DNA from: a virus
Taxonomy: Duplodnaviria > Caudoviricetes
Virus record (IMG/VR): IMGVR_UViG_3300037882_001548
Location: 1-63,403 of that record
Direction: 5' to 3' (one strand)
DNA: 63,403 nt
Shown: positions 9,649 to 63,403 of the stretch, one piece after another
Position numbering within the stretch: position 1 is the stretch's first letter
How the letters are laid out: each line of letters begins with the position of its first letter
The notes under the pieces: generated by a model
Database searches by the model: none
What the model was told of the DNA's origin: nothing
What the model saw: only the letters and a program-made list of their open reading frames with translations
Position numbers and translations under genes: made by a program

Positions 9649-9685
9649 GTAATTTATATACATATATAATAAAACAATTTATAAA

Positions 9686-11044: not shown

Positions 11045-11071
11045 TCGCTTAAATTTAAAATATTAAGATAT

Positions 11072-11110
11072 AGGGAAGGTAATTAAAACTCACCTTCCCT
11101 TATTTTATTT
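11072..11110 (+). terminator. intrinsic terminator
   Basis: AGGGAAGGT (11072-11080) / ACCTTCCCT (11092-11100), followed by TATTTTATTT. Confidence 0.8.
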
Positions 11111-11141
11111 ATAGTATATAAATTATTAAAGACACAATATA

Positions 11142-12305: not shown

Positions 12306-12335
12306 TTAAATAAAAATATAAAAATAATAAAAATC

Positions 12336-15590: not shown

Positions 15591-15603
15591 AAATAATTAA
15601 AAA

Positions 15604-15638
15604 TTATAAGGCGTGACTTAAAATCTCACGCCTTATAA
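15604..15638. promoter_or_regulatory. perfect 13-bp stem-loop between two fibre genes
   Basis: TTATAAGGCGTGA / CTTAAAATC / TCACGCCTTATAA. A U-rich tract lies on the - strand side rather than the + side. Confidence 0.7.
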
Positions 15639-15656
15639 ACTATAAAAAATACAACT

Positions 15657-17363: not shown

Positions 17364-17395
17364 TCAATGAAAAAGATAGTATTAAAAATAAAAAT

Positions 17396-36400: not shown

Positions 36401-39400
36401 CCTATGATAACATAGGTGAATTAAAAGAGGATTATGAAGTTGATATTGACATTGAAGTATTAAAAAATTTAAAAGAACAAATTGAAATAATTCAAGCTTT
36501 TGTCGATAAAGAAAAAGCGACACCCAATGATAATCATTATAGTAAAGATACAATAGACGGTATTGAAAATGGTTTCAGAACATATGACGGTAAAACCAAC
36601 TATCGTAATTACGATGGTCGTCAAATGGGTACTGCTGAAATGTTACTACATATAAATCAATTAATTACACTATACAATGCGCAGTCAGAAAAAAGACTTA
36701 AAGATATTCGCGATTATCAATTAGCTCAGGAAAATAGTAGTGCTGACAGCATTATGGAATCTGATAAAATAGATAAAACTATTCGAGATATAGCTGTAGA
36801 TGGTTTAAATGATGATGTTGTAAATGCCTATGAAGAGCATATAATAATTAATACTGTTGATCCTGACTTATCTGAAACAACAATAGAATCTAAAAAGAAT
36901 ACATTTCCTTCGTTTATGGCGCTACTTAATAGATTAGGTGTACTGAAACCTAAGAATATATCAAGTGTGCTTAAAGAGAAGAAAAAGAATATCATTGGTA
37001 CACTATTAAGTAATGCTGATAAAAAGATAAAAGGTTATCTTAAAATATCTACGGACAAAAAAACAGCTGTAGATATGGTGTTGTCATATTTCACGCAGTC
37101 ATCTAATTATGGGCTTGTTGATTTTGGTGGTGACTTGTCTAATAAATTAGTGAATGGTACATTACAAAATGAATTTGAAAGACATAAGGATATTACAACA
37201 TTACTTAAAACAGCTAAGTCAAGTAAATCAGACAAAGACTTTATAAATAAAGAATCTAAACAAGAGTTCATTAAGTTCTTGACAGCTATGTTACAACTTG
37301 AAAACTTAGAGATGTTAGAACGTATTGCGACTAATCCACTTGTTATAAATAAAGTCATAGAACAGTTTCAGAAACAAGAACCAGGTAAGTATCCAACATA
37401 CCAACAAATGTTGGCTATATTAGATATGATATTGACGGTTAAAGAGATTAAAACTAAATCTTTGTATACACCCTTCATAAATATCGCAGGCGTAGCTGGA
37501 GCTGGAAAAACATCAATAGTTGTAAGAACTGTTATAAACTATTTAGAAGCGGAAGGTACGGTAGATAAGAAGACATTGTTTGTAACAGGTCATACAGTAA
37601 CATCAACCAAGAATGTTCAAAAAGTATTAACAGATACTGAAACAGTTACGCAGAATTTGAACGCTTTATTAGAAATGTCCGATGAAGAATTTGGTAAATT
37701 GTCAGCTGTTGTCATAGATGAATCATTTGCTATTCCCATTGAATATTTCAATGCGCTGGAAACAAAGATGAAAAAAGCGAAGATAGATAAACTACCTGTT
37801 TTACTATTAGGTGACCCCTCGCAAACAACAAATAATCCAGGTACAGCTTTTCAAAATAACATTGACCGCACTAAAAGCATTAAGGCACTCACACTTAATT
37901 ACAGAGCTATTATTCCAAGTATCCGAAGCTTTGCTAAGTTATTTGATAATTCTAACTCACAGGTCAAAGAAACGATGACTGTTGCTAATGTAGAAGAATC
38001 TGACTTGATATCAGATACATCTATTATACCTAAGGGTAGTATGGTCGGTAAAGATAGTATAGTGGCGATTGTAGCTGCACAAAAAGCAATTAGACCTGAT
38101 ACAACCAGAGCTATTATTGTAGCCTCAGAAGCAGCTAAATCACCTTATTTAGCATTAGCAGATAAGCATACATTAATTTTAACACATGTAGAAGCACAGG
38201 GTGAATCTTATGATGAGGTGTATTTTGACTTTAATGAGAAACAACGTACATCCGCATTGATGTTTGAAGGTGGTAAAATTGTTATTCGTGATGTTGCCAT
38301 CAGTGAATTGGCTTTTACGGTGCAAGGTAAAGCAAATCGCTATTATAATTCGATTGCCTATACAGCACTCACACGTGCACGTAAATTTTCGTATATGCAA
38401 GACAATACGTTGACGAATAATCATATGAAAGATGATAATGTGAATAGTTCTGTCAATAATTTAACGGATGAAATAGCGCACAATACAACAGTATTTAAAG
38501 AGTTTATGACAGACTTAAATACATCAGCTGAAATGTTAGATGTAAATTATAAGAAGTCATCTGTAAAGGTCAGTAATCAATCTACACAGGCAGCAGCTAC
38601 CGAAAAAGATGATGCTAAAACACCTACTAATCATGCGCCTGATATACCTATAACAGATGATGAAAATGTATCGGAAGATGAGTCACTTGAAAAAGATAAT
38701 GAAGATGCTGTAACTGAATCAGAAGCACCAACACTTGAATTAGCAGAAGACATAGCTAAGGAAGATGATGAAGAAAATATAACCAATAAAAAATCAGAAG
38801 CTAAAACAATAGATAAAAAAAAGAAAGCTAATAAAAAAGGAAAGACTCCGTTATTATCACAGCTTAAAGATAAAATAATAGAATTGTTTTATCCAGCAGA
38901 TATTCATTTTACAGGTGATTTAACAGCACAGGAAATACAGAACTTACTGGATAAAAATCCTAATTATATACCGACAACTGTTCAAGACGATGAAGGTAAT
39001 AATTACATGCCTGTAGGTCAAGGTATTCGTGCTATTTATGTCACAGGTGGTTCAAGCTTTATGATTAGACTTATGGCACCTGTTAAAGATATGTCAGGTC
39101 AATTAGTAACCAATAAATATATTGAAGTAGGTGTATTATCAGAAAAAGATATCTTTATGGAAGACGGTGTAACGCCTCGTCATAAAGATTTATTTGAAAT
39201 TTATATACAAGCTGATACTGAATTTAAAGGAAAGAAAACAGCTATATTCCCAGGTGGTTACGATAAGACAAAAGTACAGACCATTCAACCTAAGCATTTA
39301 ATTGGTCCTGCGTTTAATGTAAAAGAGAAGTCTTCTATGAAGTTTACTTATCTGAATCAAGATGGTAGAACCAAAGAAGAAGAAGCTATTAGCAATCCTA

Positions 39401-42400
39401 ATAATTATACGTTTGACAATGAGATGACAAGGTCTATTCATGCGTACGAACAAGGTATGATGAAGTTGCCTTATAATCAAAAACATAGTATTGAAGTACC
39501 TTTAACGCTTGTAGATGATAAAGGTAATGTATCCATTAATCCGAAAGCACTCAAAGAAGGGTTAATTACCATTTGGGTAGGTACGCAGCAATTAGCTGAC
39601 TACGGGGATATTCGTGCGGAGAAAGGTAAATATAACTTTTCTGCTCGTACAGCCAAAGTTATTCGTAAATGAAAAGGATTACCTTTACTTATCATAAAGT
39701 CTCCTAAAATTAAAAGAAAAGACGGTACAGTGTCATCTCACAATCAAGCACATGTCATACCACTTATTCCACCTAAGATGACAAATAAGTCCATTGAACA
39801 TCAGACGATCAGTGAACTTGTTGATTTATTAAAAGAAGCAGTTACAATGTCAAGTAATAATGGAGCACCTATATTATTTGATGCGAACGCTAATAATCCG
39901 CTGGGTATAGATTTCTCTAATCCTGTATTTGTACAAACACTTGAAACAATTGCCAGCTTATATACAATTAATAGCGAAGGCAATAAAGAATTTAATGCGT
40001 CTAATCAAGAAATACAGGCGTTACTTATTGCAGAACTCATGCAAAAGTTTGTTGCTGTGCGTCAAAATAAATTACAAGAATGGGCTACCAATCCGTGGTT
40101 GCAAGGTTTGTTATATGGTAAAAATGACAAAGGTGAAGAAAACAGTTCAAGTAACTGAGTACGCAAACAATATGTACCTGAAATAATTAAAGATGATAAT
40201 ATTGAAATATTTAAGAAATTAATTGACGTATTATATCATCCAGAAAATACAGATTATAAATTAGCATTAACATCATTTATATCAGAATTAAATAAAGATG
40301 ATAGTAAACGCAATCCCATATTTAATCCGATAGCAGATGGGGAAAAAACACATAATATATCTATTCGCAATACCAATCAACTGGTTATTCAAGTTAAGCG
40401 TGATGAGGTAGGTGGTTATGAGTGGCACTCTTATAAACTGACAGATAAGCAAATAGGTAAAGTAAGTAGTTTCTTAAAAGCTCAGAATGCAGGTAAAGAG
40501 AATTTAGACGTTACCTTAGAAGAATTAAATGCAATTATGGCTGATGAAAAACTCATGGGTGATTTATTAGGTAAAGGTGGTCAAATAATTAACAGTACCA
40601 GTAAAGGTAATGAAAAAGTTAAAACAAAGAAACTTTCGCACAGGTCTAATAAATATCAAACAGCGCTTAATTCAGTAGCACGTCAGAATAGACTGATTGC
40701 CAACAAACCATCTCGTATAAAAATTAGTTTATTTTCATCTAAAAAAGATGAGAAAGTCAAGAAGAAAAACAGAGCACGCTCATTATTTTCTTTTGATGCA
40801 CAGCGCAGTCAATTATGGGGCACACTTAAAAAAGAAGTTAAAGCATATAAAAACTGAGAACTCGATGATAAAAAATCATTGGATGGTTTCATGTACCAAC
40901 ACGGATACGATGACCAAGCACTTGACATGCTTATTGATACCATGATTAGTGAAGGTATTATCACACAAGATGAAGCAAATAAATTCTTAGCGCAGTATGC
41001 TGACCAAGCTACGTCACCGTGAAGTAATGAAAGATTAGAAGATGTATTAAATGACCCGACATTAAATGAACCTATATCACTGTCACCAACAAAAGATATG
41101 AGTGGTGATACGAAGATTAACAATGCGACTAAATTAGATAGAATTGCTAAGGGTGAAAAGATGTCTATGGCGGATATTGCCGATGCTATGCAAAACGCAG
41201 AAGGTAATGATATAAAGATGATTTTTGACGCTTTAAGCGATAAAGCACCAGCATTAGTAGAAAATGTCGAACCAACTAAGATGTCTATTTACAGAGCTGA
41301 TTTAGTGAATAAAGAAGAAGCTATTACAACCATTGAAGATGTATCTGCTGAAATACAAAATCTTACACCACAAACAGAAGCACCAAAAGAACGTAAGGCA
41401 AAACCTCGAATAAATGACATTGATTTATCTGTTACTAAAGATGATGTTGAATTTAGTAAAGATATTAATAATAAATCTATTATTTTAGGTAGAGAAATGA
41501 CAGAATCAGAAGCTGTATTATATCTTAAAAGATTAACACCGCAATTACCGTTTAAGAATAGATTAAATATATTTTTAAAACAATTAATTGGTAAATCTTT
41601 AACAGCTAATGATTTAAACAACGTTCAGTTTCTATCTCGTGCACAAGTAGTGCATAGAGACAATGGAACAAAGCAAGTATGGGGTTTTGTCAGTCAAGGT
41701 GCAAGAACTATTGTATATGACATAGATGCAAATGGTAATAAAGTATTTTATGCGAATACAATATCACATGAATCTTTTCACAACGTATACCGTCATTATT
41801 TGACAGCTAAGGAGAGATTACATGTAGAGTCACTTATTAAGTCACGTGCTATAAAAGACGGGGTAGAAGTAATATCACCTATTGAAATAGAAGAATATGG
41901 TGCTGATTTGTTTGAAAAATATGCGAAAGATAAATTCAGAACTAAAATAAGTTTATTCGATAAAATATTAAGTTTCTTAGGTTTTACAAAAGAATACAAT
42001 AAAGATTTAGACAGTGTATTTGAAGCTATTGATAAAGGTACTATAAAGAATAATTATTTTTATGACGCTACTGAATCAAATAGTTCTGCTATCGCTTTTA
42101 TGGAAAAAGATTTATCTGATTTCACAGATTTAGATAAAGTAATTAAATCAAAAGATATTGTATCGCAATATTTAACGCAGCTATTATATCAAGGTATACA
42201 AGAAGGTAATAATAGATTTTTAGTCACGAGTGCTGAAATATTACCGATGTTACAACAAAAAGCTATTTCTGAATACGGTGTTTTAAATGATTGACTTATA
42301 TGGGCCAATGAAGAAGGTGAATATCTAAACAATAAAATAGCAAACAACGAAGCGTTATCAAAAGAAGAAGCTGCTGATTTAAAAGAAATCACCAATGATT

Positions 42401-45400
42401 ATAAAAGTGTAAAAACTAAAAGACAGTTTTTACATAATTTAATTACAACTGTAAAAACCAATTCAAACAATGATATTGTAACAGAATCAAGTTTTAAGAA
42501 CTTAAATATCATAGCTTCATTGATTATAGGTAGTTTAGAAAGAAATGCTGATGATATATTTACTTTTGATAATGAAGAAATTGATTTAGATAAAATTGAT
42601 TTATCTGAATTAGGCGACATTAACTTAAAAAAAGAAATTCAGAGTTCTGAGGATATTTCGCAAGAAGCGACACTTCATGCAAATATGAAATTATTCTTTG
42701 CTACCATTCCTGATAAAGATAGAGCTAAATTACGTGACGAAAAAGACAATACTAAACTATCATCATTTAAGTTTATAGATGCGCGTTTCGCATATGCTAA
42801 ATCACTGGAAATATTTAAGTTGTTTGAGATGAATAATCGTACAAACAATGATTTATTGCAGCAATTGGACAACATTGCTAAAACCATGAAGATGAATTTC
42901 TCTGGTACTTTTCTTATGGCTGCTGTCAAAGATGCTATACGTAGAACAATACCTACTAAGAACAGTTCACCTTATGAAGTATTTGATGTATTTGATAGCA
43001 ATAAAGTAGTTATTATACCACTGGATAAAGTAATACATGAGCGTACAGATCCAAAAAATGATAAAAGTTCATTATTCTATACGTTTAAAATGAATCCTGA
43101 TGTAGACAACAACGCATTACCTAATTCGGGTGATGAAGCCTTAGCAGCATGAAATAAGCAAGATATGTTACTGCGTCAAAATAATATGACATTGTCTACG
43201 TTATTAACTATTTTAAAAACAGAAGGTCGTGATTCAGAAAAACTTAAAAAAGATGGTAAGTTTATATTTGATACATTTACTTTATTACAAGCATTTGATG
43301 AAACAGCAAATGTAGAAATTGAAGAAGCTGTAACAAATGATGATGGTACTATTATACCCGCTAAATATACACTTAAAAAAGAGTATAAAGTAACAGGTTC
43401 TCGTATAGGTACATTCTATAATTTAATCAACCAATTTGATGAGTACAATGAGCAAACAGGTACAGGTTTGTCAGTAGATGAGTTAAACAATATGTACCGT
43501 ATGACTGAGCTATCACAAGTCGTAAAAGGTTTTCAGAATGTTATGGGTTCTATGACACGTTTAAATTTCCAAATTGCGACAACAGAAAAGAAGTTTGGTC
43601 GTCAAATAGAAACACGTCTTATGGCTAATAAAGATGATACAGGCAGGGAGAAAACAGAATCTACATTTGTCAATGTATTAATCAGAAGATTCAGTAATTA
43701 TTCAAGTTGGGCAGATTTAGAAAAAGCAGCCAGTAATGCCAAAGAAGACTCTTTTGCTAAAGGTATGTTACAAATATACAATTATGTAACGCAGCCTGGT
43801 GATAAAACAGTAGTATCAAAAAATACAATTACAATTAAGAATTTCTTAGAATTGGCTGGATTGACTTCGGATGATTATCAAATTGCTGATAATATGACAG
43901 CCATAGGTATATCTGATATTACGTTTATACTTTCTACAATCGCCGAACAGTTGGGTAAAGAAGAAGTTAATATGGCTAATTTTGAAGGTGAAGTAGCAAG
44001 TAATATTATTACAATTCATGAAATACTTCTGAATACACTTAATACTAAAATACCGACATTTATAGACAAAATATTCAGAGAAACGAACTATGCTCGTGAA
44101 AAGATGATGGTTGCCGCAGATGGTAAAAAAGTAGTACGTGATATACTTGCTACGCATTTAGATAAAGTTATGAAACAATTGATGAATTTTCATAAAGAAT
44201 CTTACTATGATGTAGAGTCTTATCTGAAAACACCCATGATGCTTTTAAATGGTTTCGTTAATAAATCAGCTACATACAGTAATACAATTCAACGTATATT
44301 CACATATGATGCACATCGTAATGAAAATACGGGACTTGTAAAAGTACGTAAAAATGAGAATAAAGCAGAGTATTATAGACGTGAATTCATCGGATATTTT
44401 ATAGATGCTATATCCACAGCTGCATCCAGTGCACCTACTTACATGCAGTCTTTTTATGACTTAGAAGAACGTGAGAAAATGAAAGCTGCTCAAGTTAAAG
44501 TCTTATCAAAAGAAGCGACTAAAGACGGATTAAGAGCTATTATCAGACAGTTAAAAGCACACAATAAAGGTTTATCTCAATGAGGTGCTGACCCTAAGCA
44601 GCGTTTTAATAACTTTCAATTTAAAGACAAAGATGGTAATGATATTATGACAAACCAATTTGTCGATTCAGCCAGTGTAGATGAAATACTACGTGTCACT
44701 GAAAATAAGTTAAATGATGAGATAAATCTTTTAATGCGAGAGTTATTAGAAGAACAAACATTATTTGACCATGAATTATTTTCTAAAATAGCATCACTGA
44801 ATTCAACAAATAAATCTTGGAATTTAGGTGAAAAATACTTTGAAGCACTGCGTGAAAAAACAGGTCAAGGTAAAGATAGAAAAGAAGGTTTTATTGTACA
44901 AGATAAAAAGCGTTATGTGTTAACTACAGAAGACGCTAATAAGTTCATTAGACCTATTATAGAAGCGTATGTATATAACAATTATGTCAACGGTTATTTC
45001 TTAAATCAGGTTGTTACTGGACCATTTGCTTTATATAAAAATGGTAAAGTGATTGTTAAACGTTTAGCTGGTGCTACAGGTGCTGGTCATATGCAGTTAA
45101 TCAGTCATTATGATGAGCGTACTAAAAAATTCAGTATTGGATCTAAGGAAAAGTTCAGTGTATTGATTGTCAAAGATGTTGTTGGTGCTAAAAATGAAAA
45201 AGATGATGATGTAGAAGCATATAAGAAAAACAGCAGTATACAAAGATTCTTACGCAATATGTTTATTGGTAACAAACAATTATCTGAATCAGAACTCATA
45301 GACGTAAATAACGAAATTGACGCTATACTTAAATATTATTCTGATAAAGGATATGATATCACGGATGCTCAGGCATTTATGACAGTAGCACGTGAGGCAG

Positions 45401-48400
45401 ACATTAGAGCTGGTTTAAATGATAAGATGAATTTTTCAGGCATCGCTAAAAATATGTATTTTGGTATTGAGACAATTGATGTACAAAGACCAGAAGTATA
45501 TGACACAGAACAAAAAGCAAAAGATGCTTTAAAGAAAATAGTTGATTTAACAAGTGAAAATAATAAAGATGCGCCGCATAGTAAAATAGACACAATAGTA
45601 TCTACTGATGAAAATGGTATTGAAAAGACAACATATCAAATTACAACGGCAGAGCCTATTACATTTTATTTAAAGAACTCTCACATTGTTTTAACAGATG
45701 ATTTGGTTAATAAATTTCCTCGTCTTAAAGCCATTAAAAACTTTCTTGAATATCAAGATGATGTTCATCAACCTATTGGTGAGTTGGTATTTGAAACGGG
45801 TATTAAAGTAGGTAAGCCTAAAAATAATCCGACATTTGCTGAATTAACTGAAACAACAGACAACGAATCTATTGGTGCAAAACGTACAGAGTTAATGAAT
45901 AGAGGTACTAAGATATTATCTTTATCTAATGTCAATAACAGAATACAATTTAACCCTCAATCTGATTTAGTTCTGACTAAGAATAAAATAGCATTATTCT
46001 CTCAAATCATGTATTTCATTAATACGGGACAGAACAAGTCATGGAGAGCTGATGAAGCGTATCAAGCACAAGGTTATTTGTTAGAAAAAGGTTTACTTGA
46101 ATTTGAGAAAAATGTAGGTTCATCACCTGTCGAATTTGATTCATTTATTAAGAAAGAATTAGCTAAATCACCAGAAGCTGCTCATTTATATGAATTGATG
46201 GTTAACGGTTTATCGGCTAATTCATTATTGATGGATAAGAAAATTATAACACTTTTAACATCTAATTTATCTAAAACACAGTTCGGTAAATTACTAAAAT
46301 TTAAAGGTGGTAAATTTACATTGATGACGGCAGAAGGCAGTGATGTAACAGAATCAAGTATACGCTTTGATGGTAGAACAACTGAATTAGAATATCGTAT
46401 TCAAAAAACATTTACGTATGCGCGTGATGCAGATGGTAAAATCATATTTAATGACGAAGGTGAAGCAACGTTAAAAGAAACGCAAGGTATGGTTTCTGAT
46501 GCGTATTTACCTAAAGCGTTCTTTTATAACTTTAATAAAAAACACAACAAATGAGAAGTTAAATTAGAGTACGCTCATATTATTGAAGCCATTGAATCAG
46601 GTAAATCACTTGTAGACAGTTCTTTATTTTTAGGATTCCGTCTACCAAGTACAGAAATTAACTCAGGTATATTAATTAATGTTGCGGGATATCACACAGA
46701 AAACGATTCATCTATTATTGTACCTAAAGAAGTAGTACCTTTACATGGTTCTGACTTTGACGTAGACTCACTGTTTGTTATAACAAGAGAATCTATCGGT
46801 AAAGATGAAGCCAATGCTAACTGAGGTGAGATAAAAGCTGTACCTGATGTACCTGTTATAAATAACAGTGACCCTAATAAAATATCTATCCGATACAATA
46901 TGGTTAAAACAGATGAACTAAACTTCTCAGCAGGTTCTATTGTAGGTATGTATAAAACACCGACACCTGACGGTAAATCAGTTGAATTATTTGATAAAGA
47001 TAGATATTTGAAAGCGTTATATGCAAATAAAGAAGCAGCGCAGCAAATATTAAACGACATTCAAGTATTTATAAACGATAAGGATTTATATGTTACCAAT
47101 GCTGACAATAAAAAAGTTACGGATAAAGCAATTGGTGAACTTAAATCTTACATTGGTGTACTATCTAAATTAGAGAATAAAGTATTGCGTAATGTTATGG
47201 TAGAAAATACCATACAAGTATTATTTGATTCTAATAATTTAGTACGTATGACAACACCTATTTCTACGGAGTTTATAGATGGTAGCCCTGAATCAAATCC
47301 TAATTCTATAAAAGGTATATTTAGTGCTTTGGGTATTGCAGATGCTCGATTTGACTTTGAACCTAATTTATCACTCCGTTCAGATTCACAAAAGATGTTT
47401 AAAAATATATTTGATGGTGCAAGTCTTACGGGTATATTTGCCAACAGTGTAAAAGTATTATCTTATATCACACGTTCTGGATGAAGAAACGAAGAACCGA
47501 TGCTGAAAAATAAGTTTCATGTACGCATTGATGGTATATCACATGACCAAATGTCACAAGTAGAAAGACGTACAAAAGAAGAAATAGCAGCAGGTATTCC
47601 GCCTAAGCCTATTTGGGCTATCATGCAGATACTTGTTAACATTGCCATAGATAATGCTAAAGATATGTTATTGTACGCCATAAACGCAAATTATACGACT
47701 GCAAACGCATTGACTGCTGCTGTGACAATTGGTATTCCTTTTGAAAAAGCAGTGTTGTTAATCAATCAACCTGCTGTAAGATTATTTGATTTATTTGAAT
47801 ATCGAGGTAATCTGTCTAAAACAAGTGGTCAAGTAGTAACAGATGTTAAAAATATACTACGTTTACTTAAAACAGATTTAGATGTCAAGGGTGATGAACT
47901 ATTAACAAAATTAAACAATCAGAGTATTGAGGAATTAGATGATACAAATGATAATGAGAATGATGAAGAAAATACATCAATGTCTTTTGATACACTAAAT
48001 GAAATAGGAGATGAAACAGATGAATCTTACATAGATAAATCTAAATTAACAATAGGTACTTCAAGTAGTTTTGAATTGACAACAAAGCAAATGAAAGATT
48101 CTTTGGACAGTAAGACAAATAATAATAAAAGTGCTGTCATTATGAATTTAATTAAGATGCAAAATCAAGCGAAACAAGGTAAGATATCAAAAGAATTATT
48201 TTTAAATGAATTAAAAAAAGTTCAAAGTGATCCCAATATATTAACTATCTTATATCAAACAAAAGTACAATTAGAAGTAGCACGCACATTTAGAAAATTA
48301 GCAGCCATTGGTGAAGGATTAAAACAAACATCTACTATATTGACACCACTACGAGATTATACGACTCGATTAGATGAGCAATTGGATTTGAGAGAAACAG

Positions 48401-50214
48401 TTACTAAAATATTTCCTAAGTATAGAGCATCCAGTTACGATGGTAAAAACTTCTTTACATTCAGGGATAAAATGATGACTAAACGAGAAAGTACAAATTC
48501 AAATGACCAAGACCAAACAGCCGATGATTATCCTTTTGACATACCTAACTTTTTCAGTATTAATCCACACGTTAAATCATCGCTATTATCACTGTTTAAA
48601 GTCAATGATATTATCGAAGATAAATTAACACTACATAGTCCCGCACTGGATTATAATCTTAAAAAAATATTCAAGATGTATTTAGATGGTGTTAAATTTC
48701 AATCACTTGGATTCAGTGGACCTAATACAACGTATATTGAATTTAAAAGACGTTTAGCGGCAAGTTTATATACTAAAGTATTATATACATCATTATTGGC
48801 AAAAGGTATTATAAAAGAAGCTAAGGATTTTAAAACAATAGATGAAAATTACAATGTTAAGTTTCTTTCTGGTCACGAAGCATTTAGGCAATCGCTGGTT
48901 CTTAAATTAGAAGCGGTGATATTGGCTGAAAAAGAAAGAGTTGGTGCAGCCATAGATAAACAGTACAGCGATAAAATTGATGAACAGCAACGCGCTGCAT
49001 ACATCAAAGAATCCATGAATCCTTTTATTCGTAAATTATACATTAAAACCAATGGTGATATAACAATCAGCAATGCAGCTAATTTAGATACCTACGAATT
49101 AATACAGATGCGCAAATCATTCTTATCATTGAATGATTTTATGATAAGTGAGATAAAAGACAGTGAGGGTTTTATATCTTATAAAGCAGATTATATGCCA
49201 GGTATAACAAATTCACTTAAATCAGAAATGTATTTGTATGAAGCTATGTTTAATGGTTTAAATTATAGTAAATCTAATAGTTTAATGTTTATAGATTTAG
49301 ATACGATTAAAGAAGCAGACGATGCGTATGCGCAAGAACTTAAAAGATTTGAGATACCGTTTATGTTATCCGAAGGACCTATTCAAGATAAAGAAGTAGA
49401 TGAGATTATGAATCATGTGGATAATATCATGCGTAAAAATGCGTATAATTTAAGAGAGTTATATGCACAAAAGAAAGATTCGCCTGGTACAAAAGGTTAT
49501 TTAAAAGAAAACGTACGTAAAATTAAGTTACGTGTATCTAATAATGTATATACCATTAGAACAGGACTACGTCAATTAAAACTTCCTTTTGCTCATAAAA
49601 TAAATGATACAACGACATTAGTATATCATCCAGATATGATTTATATACCTGATATAAATACAATAACTAAAGAACTTTATGTGCCAGCACATTATGTCAG
49701 AGATTCACAAGGCAATGCTTACGTTAAAGTAAAATATATACAAGATAGAGGCGTGTACTTATATAAAAGTTTAGGTAAATCATCAGCTTATGTTCCTGTG
49801 AGTAGGAAGTATAATCGTAGTGAAACCATATTAGATATAGCCAAAGCAAGTATTCAGTATGAGCGTATAGTAGATGTTAAATATATGCCAGGAACAGATA
49901 ATATAGTCAGTGGTGCAATAGTAACACAATTAAAAGTGTCTGAAACTATAAAATCAGGTGAATACGTTAAATTATATAATAATTCTGATTTGGCAATGCA
50001 AGGTAGTGATTTTAAATGAGTTGTTATAACATGAACTGATTTGAATAAAAATTATGAAAATCCTGATGCTCAAAATGATGCGGGTAAGGGACTTTATAAA
50101 TATAATTTTACAGTTGTACCGAAAGACCAAGCAAAAATGTTGGACGTTATGTCTACAAATCACATTATTGATGAAACCAATATAGAAATATTTGAATCTA
50201 AATGTAAGTCATAA
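33454..50214 (+). CDS. giant virion polyprotein containing the crAss-type virion RNA polymerase, an SF1 helicase domain and a zincin domain (5586 aa, code 4)
   Basis: Fourteen ORF-track fragments are all in one frame, separated only by TGA (~18). RNAP motifs TDAQ (~45361), GFRLPS and GSDFDVD (DFDVD at 46753-46767, in a gap of the ORF track). Helicase motifs GVAGAGKT (37489), VIDES, GDPSQ, AQGESYD and YTALTRAR. HESFH at 41767. TAA at 50212-50214. Confidence 0.88.
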
Positions 50215-55557: not shown

Positions 55558-56205
55558 TTATTTATTCAATGTATCAGCGACAGATTGTCTTAATTTAATA
55601 CCAATGTGTACATAAGGAGTTTCTTTAATAAATTGATTAAAGAAGAATTTACTATTACCGTCAATTACGTCAACATGAGTAGAAGTAACAATTAACCATA
55701 ATGTATCTTCCGTACTATAATGATTTCCTTTAGCCTCAGATACATTAATATCAAACACATCACCAAATTCCTTTTGCAATGTAAGACCTATTTCAAGGTC
55801 AGTAACGCCTTCAAATTTATTTATCGGTGTATCACCTACAATTTGGTGATAGTACGCTTCAAAGATACGAAGATAGCTTCGCATAATGTCATTACCTCTA
55901 TTAGCGTCATCACTGAAACCAAAGCATTGATGATATGTATTGTCTGTCTTAGAAAACAGACAATACATACGATACATCTTAACAATGGCTAAGACATGAA
56001 TAAAGCAACAATTAGGTAGCATGAAAGTATTTAATGCAGAACCAGCACTTGTTTTAGCTTTGCTAATAATTTCAAAAAATTCAGCCAATGATTTGGATGT
56101 TAATAGATTATCAGTAACAAATCCATTTTGTTTTAGATTTGCTTGATTTTCATTTTGTGAAACACTATTAGTTTGCATTGATGTCCATTGCATAAACTTA
56201 GCCAT
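55558..56205 (-). CDS. hypothetical protein (215 aa)
   Basis: Clean ORF with ATG, A-rich leader and TAA; no recognisable motif. Confidence 0.7.
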   Translation of the reverse strand: MAKFMQWTSMQTNSVSQNENQANLKQNGFVTDNLLTSKSLAEFFEIISKAKTSAGSALNTFMLPNCCFIHVLAIVKMYRMYCLFSKTDNTYHQCFGFSDDANRGNDIMRSYLRIFEAYYHQIVGDTPINKFEGVTDLEIGLTLQKEFGDVFDINVSEAKGNHYSTEDTLWLIVTSTHVDVIDGNSKFFFNQFIKETPYVHIGIKLRQSVADTLNK

Positions 56206-56237
56206 ATTTTTGATTTATTTTAAATTGTTAAATAATA

Positions 56238-56906
56238 TTATTTTTGTTTATTAATTATATATTCAGTTAACCACTGATTCATTTCTTTCAGTTTATCACT
56301 TACTCGAACATCATCAGGTGTTGGGATGTACATGTAATCATATGTATAAGCATCTTTAGGATACTTACTCATTAATTCATTGTCATCCAGCGATGTATTA
56401 AGTGACGCTTCTAATGTTTTACGAAGCTCTTCGCCTTTAATCAATATCTGATGCTTCTTATTGATTATCTTTTCTCCATTGGATAGTAATAGTCAGTAAG
56501 CTTGTGAAGCATAGTCCAATAAATCAATATTTATTTCTGAATATCGACCATCATACATAGGCTCAACAACATCCTTTTTGATTTTTTCAGGAATATCTAA
56601 TTTAATCAATGTCAAATGTTCTTTACTATCTACATCAAAACTTTCATAAAAATTATGATTGCTTATAATATCGAATAAGAATTCATCAGACAATTGTTTA
56701 GAATTAAATGCTATAATAAATGTATTGTCTTTAATGAAGGTATTAACAAAACCATTCTTTGTGAATTGCTCAAAAGGAATAGTTTTTGTTATTCACGGTA
56801 ATACAAAGTGTGCACTGGGGTTAAGTGTACGCTTGTAATCTTTCTTTAAGTTCTTGTCTAAAAAAGTTTCGTAAGGTGTGTTCAGTAAATTTAGTTCTTG
56901 GTTCAT
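56238..56906 (-). CDS. hypothetical protein (222 aa, code 4)
   Basis: ATG at 56906 (MNQELNL...). Two in-frame TGA join ORFs 56493-56693 and 56238-56444. Confidence 0.7.
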
Positions 56907-56963
56907 TATTTTATTAATTTTTTAATTGTTAAAAATATTTTAAAATTAGTGTTTTGAAAATAA

Positions 56964-57179
56964 TTATTGTGCTCGTAGTATTTCTCTATTGAGCTTTGCC
57001 GTAGCTACTTTATTAGCGTGGCGTACTTTGTTTCGAGCATCTTTGATTTTCTTTTGCTCGGCATACGCTGCTTTATATGCTTTCTTGTGCTCATTAACAG
57101 GTGGAATAACATCCAACTTGAACATACCTGGTGCGGTATCGGGGTAATTACTTTTTTCTAACGACATAAAACCTTTCAT
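56964..57179 (-). CDS. small basic hypothetical protein (71 aa)
   Basis: ATG at 57179, two nt after the exonuclease TAA; K/A-rich helical C-terminus. Confidence 0.6.
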   Translation of the reverse strand: MKGFMSLEKSNYPDTAPGMFKLDVIPPVNEHKKAYKAAYAEQKKIKDARNKVRHANKVATAKLNREILRAQ

Positions 57180-57181
57180 AA

Positions 57182-58309
57182 TTAAATTCAAATTTGAAAT
57201 TGTTGTTTTGCCAATACGGCGGGAGCATTTCAGTAATTATTACTGATATGCCAATGTAAATCTTGTATTAATTCATTGAGCCCAGGATAATACGTATCTT
57301 TTTGTGTACAGCCAGTAAATCCTTGTTGAAGTGTGTCAGGAGTTACTTTATAAGCCATTACAGCTGAGAATTTACTATCTTTGGGTGTTACAATGAACAT
57401 GAATGGAAGTAGCTTGTAATCCTTAAAAATGCTTACTTCCAATATATTACTTATAGCTTGCTGATAAAACGCAGCTTGTCTAAAATAACCGTATTCATAA
57501 AAAGACTTCTTAAAATTATAGATATCAAATCCTTTCGTTTTTAAATCTATAATTTGAATCGTTTTATCTTCATGATTGACTTGAATCATATCTATCAAAC
57601 CTTTACACTTATGCGCTTTATCATCTACGATAAAGTCGAAGTATATGGGCTGCTGATAAATATTTTCAATGTGCTCAGGTACAACACGCTTATCGAAGTA
57701 TGATGCGAATCGAGATTCTTTGATGTTCTCCACCGCATTACATACACCCACGTAATCATCTGCATAAAGCGGCTTGCGTTTATCTGTACTTGCCGCTTTA
57801 TCTAAATGCAGTGACCAATAATAATCATAATAATCATCTTTAGATCAAAATGATTCTATGACTTTCTCTATGGATAGTTTATAACCCGCTTTGTTGTATG
57901 CCTTAGCATAATCTTCAAGTGACGATTCTTTTGTTATATTCTCAGGCAATGCTTCTATAAAAGCCAACATTAATCCTGTGGGCTTTATACCAGCAAGTAT
58001 TTTAAACTTTTCATGAAACTCTTTTTGAGAACCTGTAAGTAAGGTATCTACGGCGCTACCCATGATAAAGTAATTCTTATCTTCTTTATCTATATCTTCT
58101 TTATGAATCATTTTTCTAACAAGTAGCGGATGTGTCCGTACCAATCCCAATAGGGAGTTATTGATATAAAAGTCAGATAGTCGATAATTAAAATAAAAAT
58201 CTTCATCGATAATAGATTCTTCATGTTCTGTAAAAGGGTCTCATGGCTTAGACACTTTGAGATAATCTTTATTTCAAAGTGCTAATTCTTTTTTGAATGA
58301 AAATTGCAT
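57182..58309 (-). CDS. PD-(D/E)xK exonuclease (RecE/ExoVIII-like; 375 aa, code 4)
   Basis: GSAVD, CKGLIDMI, IIDLKT and YFRQAAFY. ATG at 58309 overlaps the upstream TAA; five in-frame TGA; TAA at 57184-57182. Confidence 0.85.
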
Positions 58310-58845
58310 TATTCTGGTTTTTTATCTATTAATTTAGGTAGGTAATGGTTATTTTCACACCATTCTTCCACAGCCAACCAATCTACGAATGGTCGAGGAT
58401 GAATGTGTGTATCATAAATCAACGGGCATCCTAATGCAGCATCATCTATGTAAATATGAGCATATACTTTAGGTGATGTTGACCAACTATTCTGCATTTT
58501 GTTTATGTTAACATCATACAAATTAATACCGTGCGATTTAACAAAATCTACAGCATCAGTCAAATAAGTTATGTTAGACTGCATTGGTATAGAATGGTTG
58601 TGATGATTACCTGTAGCCAAAGACGCTTGATAATATGCTTTTGCAGCAGGCTCAGGTATTTCTTTATCCGCTCGCATTGTATGTAAGATAAGTCGATTGT
58701 ATTGTTGTAATCGCTTTAAAACACGTACTGCTTCGGGTACTGCTTTTGTAATGTGCGGAAAATCATAAAAACTGAAAGTACCATCAAAATCAAATAGTAC
58801 GGTGCGTTTTTGTATTATTTCGTCGTTAATTATTGAAGAATTCAT
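58309..58845 (-). CDS. HAD-superfamily hydrolase
   Basis: LFDFDGT motif I, LHTMR motif II and KVYAHIYIDD motifs III/IV. Likely start MNSSI at 58845. Confidence 0.85.
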   Translation of the reverse strand: MNSSIINDEIIQKRTVLFDFDGTFSFYDFPHITKAVPEAVRVLKRLQQYNRLILHTMRADKEIPEPAAKAYYQASLATGNHHNHSIPMQSNITYLTDAVDFVKSHGINLYDVNINKMQNSWSTSPKVYAHIYIDDAALGCPLIYDTHIHPRPFVDWLAVEEWCENNHYLPKLIDKKPE

Positions 58846-59314
58846 ATCCTGATTTTTTCTTTTTAAATTTATTTGCTTCAAATTCATGATATTCTTCAAA
58901 GAATTTGAAATGATTTGAATATGACCAAAGTAATACGTATATTCCTTTGGTCATATCTTCATCAGATAATTGTTCATGTACACCAAACATATTTTTATTA
59001 CGAATAACCGATAATATTGTTTTATCCATTAAACCGCTTTTAAAATATTTATATACAGGTTGACCATCTAAATTGGCATCAGATATTTTAGATGCTTCGT
59101 TGTCTATATACCCTAATTGTTTGTACATAAAACACATGCGCTCATATACAAACTTATATAATTGTAAATAAATTACTTTACTTGAATATTTCTCAAGAAT
59201 GTTTCCTGATAAATAATACATAACCATACTACTTAATGCAGGTTCATGAAAACTTACTTCACGAATACTATTGAGAATACTTTTATTAAATTCTATTACG
59301 GATTGTCTATACAT
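58826..59314 (-). CDS. hypothetical protein (162 aa)
   Basis: ATG at 59314 overlaps the end of the GGCT gene; ORF runs to TAA. Confidence 0.6.
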   Translation of the reverse strand: MYRQSVIEFNKSILNSIREVSFHEPALSSMVMYYLSGNILEKYSSKVIYLQLYKFVYERMCFMYKQLGYIDNEASKISDANLDGQPVYKYFKSGLMDKTILSVIRNKNMFGVHEQLSDEDMTKGIYVLLWSYSNHFKFFEEYHEFEANKFKKKKSGYEFFNN

Positions 59315-59756
59315 GATGCGGAGTCCAATTTGATTTATAATAACGTTTCCAGAATCTTGATAATGTACCACCTAATGGTGGAATTACTTTTGATTTTTCT
59401 TTAATAAAACAATGAAGGGTTATTGTTTCAAAAAATTTATCTTCAAGCAAAGGATCGTAGTTACGACTAATATGTTTATAACCTAAATTTATAAACTTAT
59501 AACCTTGTTCTAAGCGCATAACTTTAGACATTGTCCAAATATCTTTTATACACCATACTTCACCTTGTATGGGTCGTTTCAGTGATTTATTAGGATACAT
59601 GATAGGATAATATCCATTACTGTATAAACCATATCCGTTTATTTCTTCATGGCAAATAAATTCAGCATTGTTTAAAAAATGATTGTTAGACATACCTGAT
59701 TTAAGTGTACCATATACGAATAAATATAATGGGTATTTGATATCTTCTAATTTCAT
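59307..59756 (-). CDS. gamma-glutamylcyclotransferase (AIG2-like) family protein
   Basis: LFVYGTLK, YP, IQGEVW and LE.GY motifs. Confidence 0.85.
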   Translation of the reverse strand: MKLEDIKYPLYLFVYGTLKSGMSNNHFLNNAEFICHEEINGYGLYSNGYYPIMYPNKSLKRPIQGEVWCIKDIWTMSKVMRLEQGYKFINLGYKHISRNYDPLLEDKFFETITLHCFIKEKSKVIPPLGGTLSRFWKRYYKSNWTPHHV

Positions 59757-60115
59757 TATCAGATAAATTTAATGATGATTAAAACAATCAGTGATACAAT
59801 TAAACCTGTATAAAATCCTCTGAAATAGGATTTGGCTATGATGTTATCAAAACTACTTATTTCAGAGGACTTCACCATAAGAAATTCACGATATACTTTA
59901 ATTTGTTCGTACAGTCGTTTGGTAACAGCTTCGTTGACTACACCAGGATTGGTTGTTGCTGATGTAATAGCTCTACTTTTTATGAGCTTTTGGTGTTCTT
60001 CTTTCAATGTCTTAGTTAATATATTGCCCGCAGCCAATTGTGATTCTAAGTCATAAAGATAATCTGTCAATAATTTATTTACAGATTTGGGTAAAAAATA
60101 CTTAAATAATCTCAT
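59756..60115 (-). CDS. coiled-coil protein with C-terminal transmembrane helix (119 aa, code 4)
   Basis: C-terminal GLIVSLIVLIIIKF. Ends TGA-TAA, with the TAA overlapping the next ATG. Confidence 0.65.
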
Positions 60116-60118
60116 TAT

Positions 60119-60337
60119 TTATACAGTAATTTGTAAACCGAATCTTGAATCTAAAGTATCATCAAAACCCTCAATAAAGTCACCAATATCTGTATAAATA
60201 ATTGAAGAATCATCTGATATACTTTTACTTATAACCGAACCAATATTATACATAAATGAAGATTCATCTAAGTCGTTTTCTATTGCTTTCTGCAAATCTA
60301 TAATAATTTTTTTTACCAATTCTTTTTTATTCGCCAT
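60119..60337 (-). CDS. small acidic hypothetical protein (72 aa)
   Basis: TAATG-coupled start; ORF runs to TAA. Confidence 0.6.
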   Translation of the reverse strand: MANKKELVKKIIIDLQKAIENDLDESSFMYNIGSVISKSISDDSSIIYTDIGDFIEGFDDTLDSRFGLQITV

Positions 60338-60801
60338 TATTTTATTAATTTTAATTGTTCTATAATATTAATAATTGTATCATCAACTTCTTTTTGATTA
60401 GAAGGAAGATATAGGTGATATACATAATCTGATTGATTGGTTATTCACTGTTTAAACAGTTTTCATCGAATATCAAAATCAGGCGTACGCATACCCTTAG
60501 TTTCTATGACAAACACATGATTTCTTTTTTTAATAAGAAAATCAGGCTTGTAAGACACTTTATTTACTTTGAATACATCTTGTCACTTCTTACGTCATTT
60601 CTCCTTAGAATCAAAATTAAATGCTTCTACAAGAACAAACGATTGTGATTCGTATTCAAATGCTACCATGCACTCTGTGAGTTTCATGGCACAATATAAT
60701 TCTAAACCAGAACGATAAGGACCTCATCGCTTGGTTTTATTATTAGAATTATACTTGTTGGTTAATGATTTAACTTTTTTAATCATTTGAGTTTCTACCA
60801 T
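60337..60801 (-). CDS. PD-(D/E)xK endonuclease, T7 endonuclease I / Holliday-junction resolvase-like (code 4; absent from the ORF track)
   Basis: Manual translation gives YRSGLELYC, FEYES, YKPDF, VIETKG and RWKLFK with five TGA and no TGG. TAA overlaps the next ATG at 60337; alternative start at 60786. Confidence 0.85.
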
Positions 60802-61339
60802 TTCTTTTACTCATAGACATTCCATCATATACGTTTGATGAACCATCCATAATGCGATATGTTCGTACTACGGCAAAATTAGTTATCTTAAAATATTCAA
60901 ATGTAATACCAAAATGTTCTTTTTCTAATTTATTAAGCACTTTTTGCTCTATTATTTGCGGTGTAATATCCACTAAACTATTAGTATATACACACTCCGC
61001 TATCTCTGACATAACCATGTTAACCAGGGTAGATTCAGGTTGATGCAGTGTATTATACAATTGCTTAATATCTGATACAGAATAACCAATAGCTCCACTC
61101 AAAGTGATATTTTTATCATCTTTGGTAGTCAATGTCTGTATAGGGAAACTGGTAATGCGTTTGCGAATAGATTGTACATAAACAGAATCTAAATAAGGTA
61201 TAATAAAATGCATACCACCATTAAGCGTTTTTACATTTTTACCTGCTCGCACACGTAGTCCAGATTCCCACGGTTGAATGATAATCCAGAACTTAAAGAA
61301 ACTAACTATTTGATTTATAAAATTTGAAATGTTATTCAT
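60779..61339 (-). CDS. SPFH/band-7 domain membrane protein
   Basis: IIQPWESGLRVRAGK, GMHFIIPYLD and QTLTTKD motifs. Confidence 0.85.
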   Translation of the reverse strand: MNNISNFINQIVSFFKFWIIIQPWESGLRVRAGKNVKTLNGGMHFIIPYLDSVYVQSIRKRITSFPIQTLTTKDDKNITLSGAIGYSVSDIKQLYNTLHQPESTLVNMVMSEIAECVYTNSLVDITPQIIEQKVLNKLEKEHFGITFEYFKITNFAVVRTYRIMDGSSNVYDGMSMSKRNGRNSND

Positions 61340-61341
61340 TG

Positions 61342-61710
61342 TTAAATTAATTTTGCTTTTAATTCTTCAATTTGAGCATTGATTAATGCGTTATTTTTTA
61401 TTTTAAATTTTTCTTTTTTGTCAAATTCAGCTTTACGTAATTTAGCATCTTTTATTAGTTGTATACGTGCATTATATGCTTCATCTGATTCTAATTCATA
61501 ATAACATAAATACATACTTAACTCATTACAATAATTTCAGTCTTCGGAAATATCGTATTCTAAAAACATATTTTCTTTATTATAAAATTTTTGTAATTCT
61601 TGAAGTTTTGATATTGTATTTTCTAAATTTTGTGTAAAAATATGGTTATTGTTAATACTTATATGTTTTTTTATTTTAATTCGTTCTGTGTTATTTATTT
61701 CACTATTCAT
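61342..61710 (-). CDS. hypothetical protein (122 aa, code 4; absent from the ORF track)
   Basis: ATG at 61710 overlaps the primase end; one TGA; ELESDEAYNARI then a coiled coil; TAA at 61344-61342. Confidence 0.65.
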
Positions 61711-62647
61711 TATTGATTAAGTTTTTTTTTAAATACTGTTTTACAGCATCTTTACCCAATATTTTATACATGCCTGAAATATCTTTCCCCTGCGGTACAT
61801 AAATACTGGGTATGTTATATAATTTTAAATATTTGTCTGCTATTTTTCTTCCTGCATTGTCATCATCCATAATACATATAATTGACTTAAATCGTTTCTT
61901 TAAATCTGTTATAATATCTTGATTAATCAACGTGCCTTCATTAACAGCACTGATAGCAGGTATATTAAGCGCATCCAGTGTCATTACATCTTTCAGTGAT
62001 TTAGTTATCACTAAACGCTTACCTGTTTGATTGAGTGTATCGTAGCCATGTACATAGTCTGTCTTTATACAGTTACGTCATTTATCTTTTTTTTGACTTA
62101 GCGGACGATACATCTTATAACCTACATTGGTTTCATAAACAAATAAAGGTTCGTTTATATCGGAAAGAAATACGCTATTTTGCGATGTAGCGAAAAAAGA
62201 ACAACTGCGTACATTAAATTTACGAAGTTGTTTAGCTGTTATGCCAAATTGATGCCAATAAGCTACTTCTGACTTGTTTCACCGTTTTAGCTGATATTCC
62301 ATCTCAATCGGTGTAGATACAATCAAAGGGTCTTCGTATGAGTCATATATGATATCGGATTCTAATAACCCAAAATCAGATATAACCATATCTATGACAC
62401 CGTGATAGCCTTTATCAGGGTACAGTGACATCAATGCACTTAATCAATCATATCCCTTACGATTGGCAAAATCATGGAATATAGGATAACCTTCGGTCGA
62501 TTGAAAAAAATAACAATCAGCCGACTTATCTATACGAAAAGGTGAAGTAAATCCTTTTCGATACGAGAAAAAACCCAAGTAACGTTTAAATATGTTACTT
62601 GGGTTAATTCTTTGTTCAACTCATTTTTTTCTTGTTATTTGATTCAT
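61703..62647 (-). CDS. dnaG: DnaG-type DNA primase (314 aa, code 4)
   Basis: SPFRID, FHDFA, YWHQFGI, YRPL...KW, ITKSLKDVM, Toprim MDDDNAG and KDIS. Four in-frame TGA. Confidence 0.85.
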
Positions 62648-62656
62648 TGTTATATT

Positions 62657-62917
62657 TTAATCTTCTTCGTTGATTTCTAAAAAATCGTTTCGTATAAGAC
62701 TATCTAATTGGTCATACACTTCATCGAATTCTTTTTGTATTTCTTCTGATTTATATACATAAACCTCAGAAGTATCTTCATCAGATAAACAAGTTAAATC
62801 GGATATTTTACAATTACATTTTGCCGCAACAATGAAATCAGCTAATTGGCATACGAAATACATGTAATCAGAATATGCTGTACCGTCTTGTTTTTGTATT
62901 TGTTCTATAATTGTCAT
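62657..62917 (-). CDS. small acidic hypothetical protein (86 aa)
   Basis: Likely start MTIIEQ at 62917, just after the upstream stop. Confidence 0.55.
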   Translation of the reverse strand: MTIIEQIQKQDGTAYSDYMYFVCQLADFIVAAKCNCKISDLTCLSDEDTSEVYVYKSEEIQKEFDEVYDQLDSLIRNDFLEINEED

Positions 62918-62921
62918 CTTT

Positions 62922-63403
62922 TTAATTATATTTTTTACCAGATATTGCTTGCATAAAACTATTTTCATCAAATCCGTGTCGATTGCGTATTTGATTGTTT
63001 ATTTTATTTTCTTTTTGTTCTTTTTCACGACGCAATTGTTTCTCTTTTTCTTTTCTTAAATTAAAATCAACCATAGCAGCATTGATTAAATTATTAGCTT
63101 CTTCTCTTTTATTAGCTTCTAATTCTTTTTGTGCTTTTGCATCAGCTTTATTTTTTTCATAATTGATTTTCTTAACATATTTGTACATCGCTTTTTTATT
63201 ATCAAAAGCGATACATTTAGATAAATCAATTATTTCTCCCTTATACGTAATATAATCATATTTATCAGGATTAAGAAAATAATCAGCTTCTAATTTAGTT
63301 AAAAAAGAACGATGATTTATTTGATGATTTAATATATGTATTTTAATAAAATCATCAAATGAAAGCATTCGTTTATCAAAAAAATTTTTAGATGTTTTTT
63401 CAA
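62922..63403 (-). CDS. basic coiled-coil hypothetical protein (possibly 5'-truncated by the window edge)
   Basis: ORF 62922-63368; the frame stays open upstream of the ATG to the end of the window. Confidence 0.55.
   Translation of the reverse strand, partial: EKTSKNFFDKRMLSFDDFIKIHILNHQINHRSFLTKLEADYFLNPDKYDYITYKGEIIDLSKCIAFDNKKAMYKYVKKINYEKNKADAKAQKELEANKREEANNLINAAMVDFNLRKEKEKQLRREKEQKENKINNQIRNRHGFDENSFMQAISGKKYN

Follow-up and report, generated by a model that had tools for sequence, protein, structure and literature searches.

Phages with a reassigned stop codon have been described from several systems. For the Crassvirales, Yutin et al. 2021 (PMC7886860) report that many crAss-like members encode suppressor tRNAs, that codes switch at short phylogenetic distance, and that conserved genes can carry inteins. 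The alternatively coded gut phages, including the Lak phages, of Borges et al. (10.1101/2021.08.26.457843) are described with inferred standard-code hosts and a phage suppressor tRNA, and the Jade phages with a "code change operon" encoding release factor 1 (RF1) and tryptophanyl-tRNA synthetase (TrpRS). Phages of hosts that themselves use code 4 or code 25 (Mycoplasma; Absconditabacteria, Borges et al.) carry in-frame TGA genome-wide and need no suppressor. Here we describe the 63,403-bp IMG/VR virus record IMGVR_UViG_3300037882_001548, analyzed over its whole length and called the window below. By portal, capsid, and terL homology, it is a deep-branching crAss-like phage (Crassvirales). It shares its order and the reading of TGA as tryptophan with the phages of Yutin et al., and it differs from named Crassvirales in a portal identity of only about 27% and in a freshwater rather than a gut origin. 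TGA is a tryptophan codon in all of its gene modules, including the replication module.

The window is a single contig with 31.3% GC. Read with code 4, it consists of 40 tightly packed open reading frames (ORFs), of which 37 end in TAA, 3 in TAG, and none in TGA; under code 11, the same ORFs fragment. Cover by ORFs of at least 150 amino acids is 0.78 under code 11, 0.95 under code 4, and 0.78 under code 15, so code 4 mends the broken genes and code 15 does not. The three replication genes of the original observation and the portal gene, with families assigned from PHROGs and Pfam, are these:

61703..62647, minus strand, DNA primase (Toprim), 314 amino acids; phrog_12622 at E 5.6e-27, Pfam Toprim_2
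60337..60846, minus strand, DUF1064 or Holliday-junction-resolvase-like endonuclease, 169 amino acids; PF06356 at E 3e-6, phrog_190, phrog_945
57182..58309, minus strand, PD-(D/E)XK exonuclease (exonuclease VIII-like), 375 amino acids; phrog_412 at E 5.9e-16, PF12684
2570..5029, plus strand, portal; phrog_6547 at E 2.6e-109

Single-protein searches of viral contigs with the primase and the portal gave no close relatives, and relatives were found through a capsid alignment instead, with capsid homologs 44 to 58% identical on contigs of up to 112 kb; 80 loci were taken. In a column test, every TGA was masked as X and the window proteins were aligned to relatives. Opposite the window TGA codons, 598 of 1192 residues were tryptophan, followed by tyrosine (121), leucine (75), and phenylalanine (50); opposite the TGG codons, which served as the control, the figures were 545 of 899 for tryptophan, then 51, 43, and 41. 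Because tryptophan stands opposite TGA much as it stands opposite TGG, TGA encodes tryptophan and not glycine. Individual columns agree. Exonuclease TGA155 faces tryptophan in 7/8 relatives, endonuclease TGA128 in 6/8 with TGA itself in the other 2, and primase TGA190 in 4/6, and in the portal TGA occupies near-invariant tryptophan columns such as codon 352 (61/63) and codon 616 (69/70). Stops inside the homology-supported window alignments comprise 62 TGA, 1 TAA, and 0 TAG, which rules out gene decay.

Across the window there are 94 TGA and 91 TGG codons. A sequence-only reading of this DNA had counted 4 TGA and 1 TGG in the primase, 5 and 2 in the exonuclease, and 5 and 0 in the endonuclease. 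Our recount returned the same numbers for the first two; the endonuclease count is borne out with a later start, and the longest ORF gives 6/0, since the first TGA is codon 12. The distribution over genes is strongly uneven, the observed heterogeneity being reached by 0/20000 shuffles. The regions and genes that differ are as follows:

6308..18985, plus strand, TGA-poor block from the major capsid protein to the tail fibers, 5 TGA / 33 TGG
start 6308, plus strand, major capsid protein (phrog_11589; PF23898), 0 TGA / 3 TGG
22081..22713, plus strand, endolysin-like gene (phrog_9589 at E 6.3e-8), 0 TGA / 5 TGG
55558..63368, minus strand, part of the replication module within the record, 15 ORFs, 20 TGA / 16 TGG

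The capsid module as a whole (27 TGA / 41 TGG) has the lowest TGA share, against 67/50 elsewhere (p 0.023), and the capsid-to-fiber block, at 5/33, stands against 89/58 in the rest of the window (Fisher p 1.2e-7). The middle block at 24944-55466 has 47 TGA and 34 TGG, the giant 5586-amino-acid ORF 18 and 16, and the portal 8 and 1. TGA-free genes of the replication module include those for the GGACT protein at 59307-59756 (0/4) and the SPFH protein at 60779-61339 (0/2). The capsid gene is TGA-free in 5/5 recoded records examined, with 3, 7, 6, 5, and 5 TGG codons. In the model of Borges et al., recoded stops are enriched in structural and lysis genes and act as a lysis timer, and Yutin et al. 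(PMC7886860) describe reassignment as "in most cases" limited to late genes. The window differs from both accounts, its endolysin and capsid genes being free of TGA and its late capsid module having the lowest share. Recoded stops are thus not concentrated in late structural or lysis genes, contrary to the published model, and if anything the reverse is seen, at the p value given above for the capsid module.

In 3/40 genes, a TGA lies within the last two codons before the terminal TAA, where 0.36 are expected (P 0.006):

5164-6243, ending TGA TAA
57182-58309, ending TGA ATT TAA
59756-60115, ending TGA TAA

Their position suggests that these codons once served as stops, backed up by the TAA. 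The base following TGA, examined as a sign of competition with release factor 2 (RF2), was not significantly biased (p 0.06 versus TGG; 0.26 versus all codons).

The sequence-only reading took TGA in replication genes to be unusual, unless related recoded phages commonly used it there too. Four recoded relatives do, and so do published recoded phages, so that the claim was overstated. In G004, the exonuclease has 3 TGA and the endonuclease 5; in G007, the exonuclease has 3, the primase 1, a DnaB-like helicase 2, and a superfamily 2 (SF2) helicase 3; the primase of G003 has 4; and in G001 the exonuclease TGA stands opposite tryptophan in 8/8. Apparent recoding in G006, G002, and G010 (8, 13, and 8 in-alignment TGA) was rejected, the matches being single, weak, and antisense. 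Recoded replication genes are already in print for the Lak phages and for the zeta crAss PolB, which has multiple TGA codons (Yutin et al. 2021, PMC7886860). The replicative module is described as early in phi14:2 and as middle in crAss001 (10.1101/2020.03.07.982082; PMC8375218), phages that share with the window the module order, a giant DFDxD virion protein, and a replication module on the opposite strand. Because their replication modules are early or middle, a suppressor in the window phage would by extension have to act from early in infection.

That no suppressor is visible in the window was also noted from the sequence alone, and three tRNA search methods agree. ARAGORN found 0 tRNA genes, Rfam at E<=1 gave no tRNA, and a covariance model built on suppressor tRNAs of the relatives reached at best 10.9 bits (E 2.5) with its filters disabled. 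The sole Rfam match in the window, to the PinT small RNA (25 bits, E 0.7), was set aside as chance. The suppressor is probably out of view because the contig is incomplete. No direct or inverted terminal repeats occur in the 63,403-bp window, and the complete relatives with terminal repeats are 106.6 kb (G006) and 103.2 kb (G007) long, so the window represents about 60% of a genome of which about 40 kb is missing. Gene order is colinear between the window and its relatives. The window corresponds to an arc that begins at the C-terminal part of terL, takes in the virion genes and the giant ORF, and ends at the primase, about 63 kb in G007, and the remaining 40 kb or so in relatives holds the DnaB-like helicase, the SF2 helicase, a family-A polymerase, small TGA-poor genes, GroEL, and the 5' half of terL.

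It is in this remaining part that the relatives keep a tRNA with anticodon UCA. It lies upstream of terL by 2.2 kb in G003, 2.4 kb in G007, and 5.8 kb in G004, and by about 2.6 kb in G001, where the covariance model gives 63.6 bits and ARAGORN missed it. Among the 80 capsid-centered loci, 6 have a tRNA(UCA) 8 to 10 kb upstream of the capsid gene, and the covariance model adds UCA-loop matches in L013 and, partially, in L048. All of the whole-record recoded relatives covering the region upstream of terL have a tRNA-like match there, clearly UCA in 4/5, and a tRNA(UCA) was found in 0/4 of the standard-code whole-record relatives (G006, G008, G002, and G010). Since the window capsid gene starts at 6308 and the tRNA of these loci lies 8 to 10 kb upstream of theirs, the corresponding place is 2 to 4 kb beyond base 1. 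By analogy, the suppressor tRNA of the window phage most likely lies on the missing part of the genome. Of the two routes offered in the sequence-only reading, the first, a tRNA-Trp(UCA) outside the window together with an RF2 antagonist, is thus supported by truncation and synteny as far as the tRNA is concerned; its release-factor component and the second route, a code-4 host, are not. The RF-1 domain was found in 0/5 recoded relatives, which gives no indication that these phages bring a release factor, and no operon like that of the Jade phages was seen, although no search was aimed at TrpRS.

Several other elements were seen in the same region of the relatives. L013, which is TGA-recoded, has a tRNA-Leu(UAA) at L013:1466-1552, where others keep the suppressor, and 600 nucleotides (nt) further on, at L013:2139-2276, a tRNA-like element of 138 nt, which has a UCA loop and, where the second arm would be, an insert of 55 nt. 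ARAGORN called a tRNA with the unusual anticodon ACA ("Cys") at L089:8416-8490 of G001, and no role was assigned to it once the covariance model had located a UCA tRNA elsewhere in the G001 record. In G007, a gene that separates the suppressor tRNA from terL, immediately upstream of the latter, encodes a GroEL-type chaperonin (L111:2366-3979, corresponding to G007 42366-43979; phrog_5725 at E 7e-135) and contains zero tryptophan codons; the matching position in G001 is taken by a 539-amino-acid ORF. A transfer-messenger RNA (tmRNA; RF00023) stands beside the tRNA(UCA) in G003 (L081:879-1161, 54.6 bits) and G004 (L126:11897-12222, 45.7 bits), the gathering score being 47. A possible role for it is the rescue of ribosomes that run through the TGA stops of host messages.

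The suppressors of the relatives are of two kinds. Those of G007 and G003 are Trp-like tRNAs of 75 to 77 nt, and those of G004, L010, L050, L055, L063, and G001 are 94 to 100 nt long and are called tRNA-Sec or missed by ARAGORN. In the second kind, the long "variable arm" is a hairpin whose loop, (G/C/U)UCCAAA, is a Trp-type CCA anticodon loop. These two-armed tRNAs are located as follows:

L126:10731-10824 (G004)
L010:1480-1579
L050:1826-1919
L055:140-235
L063:237-334
L094:1328-1427, minus strand (G001)
further examples in L138-L217

A search of IMG/VR with a pattern combining the UCA loop, TCCAAA, and a T-loop found 82 stretches, of which 80 loci were listed. At 61/80 of the listed loci, ARAGORN called a tRNA(UCA) of 93 to 100 nt, which amounts to 48 distinct sequences; a control pattern with TACCAA found 16 stretches with a tRNA in 0/16. 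All 48 sequences have a G discriminator (G73) and a 5-bp T stem; a 7-bp acceptor stem is seen in 46 and A1-U72 in 37. Among the second arms, 18 carry the loop GUCCAAA and 15 the loop CUCCAAA, with 41 different stems in all. When tested with a stated structure, the second arm covaries: 4/4 tested pairs change on both sides, with 91% of cells paired over 55 distinct rows, in an alignment fitted to the covariance model for 3 of the 4 tested pairs. No second arm appeared in the structure that RNAalifold drew for a 68-row alignment. In MAFFT alignments of four loci, the second arm aligns in 4/4 with the anticodon arm (CUCCAAA) of the tRNA-Trp(CCA) of the same locus, which lies adjacent to the two-armed tRNA in 3 of the 4, and the UCA arm appears as a 23-nt insertion before the second arm. 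Code 4 gains at least 0.08 in ORF cover at 35/49 loci of at least 6 kb with a two-armed tRNA. Among two-armed-tRNA loci, 14 also encode tRNA-Trp(CCA), and 11/61 have a tmRNA by ARAGORN. On this comparative sequence evidence, the two-armed tRNA(UCA) class is real and widespread. The literature searched, which included PMC12636597, PMC7609411, PMC5389517, PMC13092985, PMC10879173, and PMC13715818, supplements excluded, holds no description of a second CCA arm in the parts consulted.

Such a tRNA would combine a normal acceptor stem, D arm, T arm, and G73 with a UCA arm in the decoding position, and would keep a Trp anticodon arm (5-bp stem, loop C/G-UCCAAA) as its "variable" arm. We conjecture that the CCA arm is an identity decoy for TrpRS: the host enzyme reads the anticodon, and with this arm it could charge a tRNA that, by its working anticodon, it would otherwise recognize poorly. 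An alternative is a tRNA able to present either arm. Made from the first minutes of infection, a two-armed tRNA could allow even the earliest replication genes to run in code 4. Whether the suppressor of the window phage is itself of this kind, as in G004, its nearest long relative, with charging through the CCA arm and constitutive recoding, is a tentative and rather doubtful extension by analogy.

The left end of the record, beyond which the relatives' tRNA(UCA) would be placed, is itself anomalous:

1..111, no strand, left end of the record; the place of the relatives' tRNA(UCA), 8 to 12 kb upstream of the capsid gene, lies beyond it
112..2568, plus strand, first ORF, with an SF2 helicase N terminus, a LAGLIDADG homing-endonuclease/intein C-part, and a terL C-part
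within 112..2568, plus strand, terL part of the first ORF; phrog_6681

In the first ORF, amino acids 2-132 match ResIII/DEAD helicases and amino acids 166-230 match homing endonucleases; the latter stretch ends in IVHN|C, which we take to be an intein C-junction. Homology to terL covers only amino acids ~298-818, the terL of relatives aligns only over 301-818, and the ATPase part of about 300 amino acids is absent. The helicase part weakly matches a minus-strand replication helicase of G003. In sequencing run X3, which holds a relative at 92 to 95%, nt 1-200 and 401-595 have a depth of 19 to 24 versus 2 to 6 in the rest (four to ten times), and the X3 contig diverges from the window after nt 595. 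Runs X1 and X2 have no coverage of nt 1-800 and speak neither for nor against a chimera. On this slight evidence, the left end probably reflects either chimeric assembly or a defective molecule that has been rearranged, with the junction at about nt 500 to 600.

The explanation that we consider probable is that the phage itself, of whose genome the window would be about 60% and which would be a distant freshwater member of the crAss-like group, has reassigned TGA from stop to tryptophan with its own tRNA(UCA) while its host, probably one of the Bacteroidota, keeps the standard code. Decoding would be by a phage-encoded tRNA with anticodon UCA among the small TGA-poor genes a few kilobases upstream of terL, just past the truncated and apparently chimeric left end, and expression of this tRNA would begin as soon as infection does. 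Early and middle replication genes could in that case contain TGA no less readily than late genes, and recoding would then be genome-wide rather than a late-gene or lysis switch. TGA would be avoided only by the most strongly expressed virion genes, from capsid to fibers, and by the endolysin. Of this account, we infer the tRNA in the window phage, its timing, and the code of the host. Several points weigh against it. Early expression of the tRNA in this group is a step carried over from the gene timing of model phages. The argument for the tRNA comes from synteny with relatives of only 44 to 58% capsid identity and not from the window phage itself, and in G005, which is also recoded, the sole match at that place is aberrant (39.7 bits, first loop non-UCA). 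TGA makes up 0.51 of the tryptophan codons in the window versus at most 0.23 in relatives (G003, 71/241, an upper bound). Finally, because the left end is anomalous, genes there may not be arranged as they are in the relatives.

If the host itself used code 4, with UGA as tryptophan and no RF2, the phage would simply follow it and need no suppressor. TGA throughout the modules, even in genes presumed to be the first expressed, the absence of any ORF that needs a TGA stop (37 TAA, 3 TAG), and the failure to find a tRNA in the window would all suit such a host. Codon usage would not. The A-ending share is 0.80 to 0.92 in the AAR, GAR, CAR, TTR, and AGR pairs and only 0.51 for TGA within TGR, and use of TGA is strongly uneven, down to 5/33 in the capsid-to-fiber block, so that TGA is neither composition-matched nor even over genes, as would be the trait of a phage of a code-4 host. 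Like the phages of code-4 and code-25 hosts, the window has TGA throughout, but here it is tryptophan and not glycine, it is less frequent than the AT bias would predict, and some genes avoid it. Relatives with the standard code end 7 to 30% of their ORFs in TGA (29/96 in G006), and the recoded relatives carry their own tRNA(UCA). The three genes with TGA just ahead of the terminal TAA likewise speak for a standard-code background. In the capsid tree, recoding is scattered over the tips: its 37 rows include 5 recoded ones, which require 5 changes, at least 4 of them forced by well-supported branches, and the sister of recoded G004 is G006, which has the standard code (support 98/98). Because recoding labels on this tree came from ORF cover around the TGA-poor block, rows with mild recoding may have escaped. 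The crAss-like phages infect Bacteroidota, as judged from the hosts of the portal relatives, and a Shine-Dalgarno core lies upstream of only 1/40 genes in the window against a background of 3.8%. Scarce Shine-Dalgarno sites fit Bacteroidota, and on these two grounds the host looks Bacteroidota-like; we know of no code-4 Bacteroidota. Under-use and unevenness of TGA together with standard-code sisters make a code-4 host unlikely, indeed quite improbable overall, and the proposal of one in the sequence-only reading is unsupported.

A phage without any suppressor, whose UGA codons are read by a host suppressor or by near-cognate host tRNA-Trp(CCA), is also unlikely, if less so. Borges et al. (10.1101/2021.08.26.457843) report a TGA suppressor detectable in only 35% of code-4 phage genomes, and Yutin et al. 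(PMC7886860) raise host-encoded suppressors as a possibility, both of which favor this account; set against it is the tRNA-like match in all whole-record recoded relatives that cover the region, 4/5 of them clearly UCA. Moreover, as the tRNA that ARAGORN missed in G001 demonstrates, undetected does not equal absent. A further reading, on which the replication genes with TGA are pseudogenes in decay or come from a defective genome and have working copies elsewhere, is hardly credible. In its favor, the first ORF is chimeric and lacks the terL ATPase half, so that the genome recorded here may not be viable. However, in-alignment stops are TGA with a single TAA and no TAG, TGA sits at conserved tryptophan columns, four relatives have TGA in these genes too, and the window holds no paralogs of the primase, exonuclease, or endonuclease at E<0.09, and hence none of the TGA-free functional second copies that had been envisaged.

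The remaining content of the window is organized in two blocks of opposite strand:

112-55466, plus strand, terL-containing ORF, portal, major capsid protein, tail fibers, endolysin-like gene, 1505-amino-acid virion protein, 5586-amino-acid ORF, and 1743-amino-acid ORF
33454..50214, plus strand, giant 5586-amino-acid ORF, with DFDVD at amino acid 4434 (virion RNA polymerase motif DFDxD) and an AAA_30 P-loop domain at amino acids 1343-1503
55558-63368, minus strand, PD-(D/E)XK exonuclease, HAD-like, GGACT, DUF1064 endonuclease, SPFH, primase, and small ORFs

The giant ORF, whose homologs in relatives have 5366 to 6177 amino acids, also contains HExxH-like stretches. PHROGs gave no match for its first half, the only half scanned, and Pfam found nothing in its second half. 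Judged by the motif only, the window would thus encode a giant virion protein with DFDxD as in Crassvirales, here as a single ORF, unlike in phi14:2 and crAss001. These two phages use the standard code. Adjoining the endolysin-like gene, in the putative lysis region, an ORF at 20547-21557 to which no family was assigned has an N-terminal membrane helix. A tblastn search with the portal matched 138 phage records, none of which reached 60% identity; the best were crAss-like phages at 27 to 28% with Bacteroides, Flavobacterium, and Cellulophaga as hosts. Contigs at least 99% identical to the window from nt 801 onward occur in two freshwater metagenome runs, one of which may be where the record was sampled, and exact 50-nt patterns from the ends gave 0 matches (the left end in metagenome contigs, the right end in metagenome and viral contigs).

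In part, this is a known situation: a recoded phage on an incomplete contig, with recoded replication genes that are on record elsewhere and common to its relatives. The window adds a deep-branching freshwater crAss-like lineage to the TGA-recoding phages. Its TGA distribution runs against the late-gene or lysis-timer model, the replication and packaging genes being TGA-rich and the capsid, fiber, and endolysin genes TGA-avoiding, and fits a suppressor available all through infection, with a codon of lower efficiency being selected against where expression is highest. Two findings merit follow-up: the scarcity of TGA in the capsid and endolysin genes, and the relatives' two-armed suppressor. 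If the CCA arm does enable charging by the host TrpRS, phages would be able to switch a standard-code cell to code 4 without a synthetase of their own, and this would explain why a suppressor is detected in only about one third of code-4 phages.

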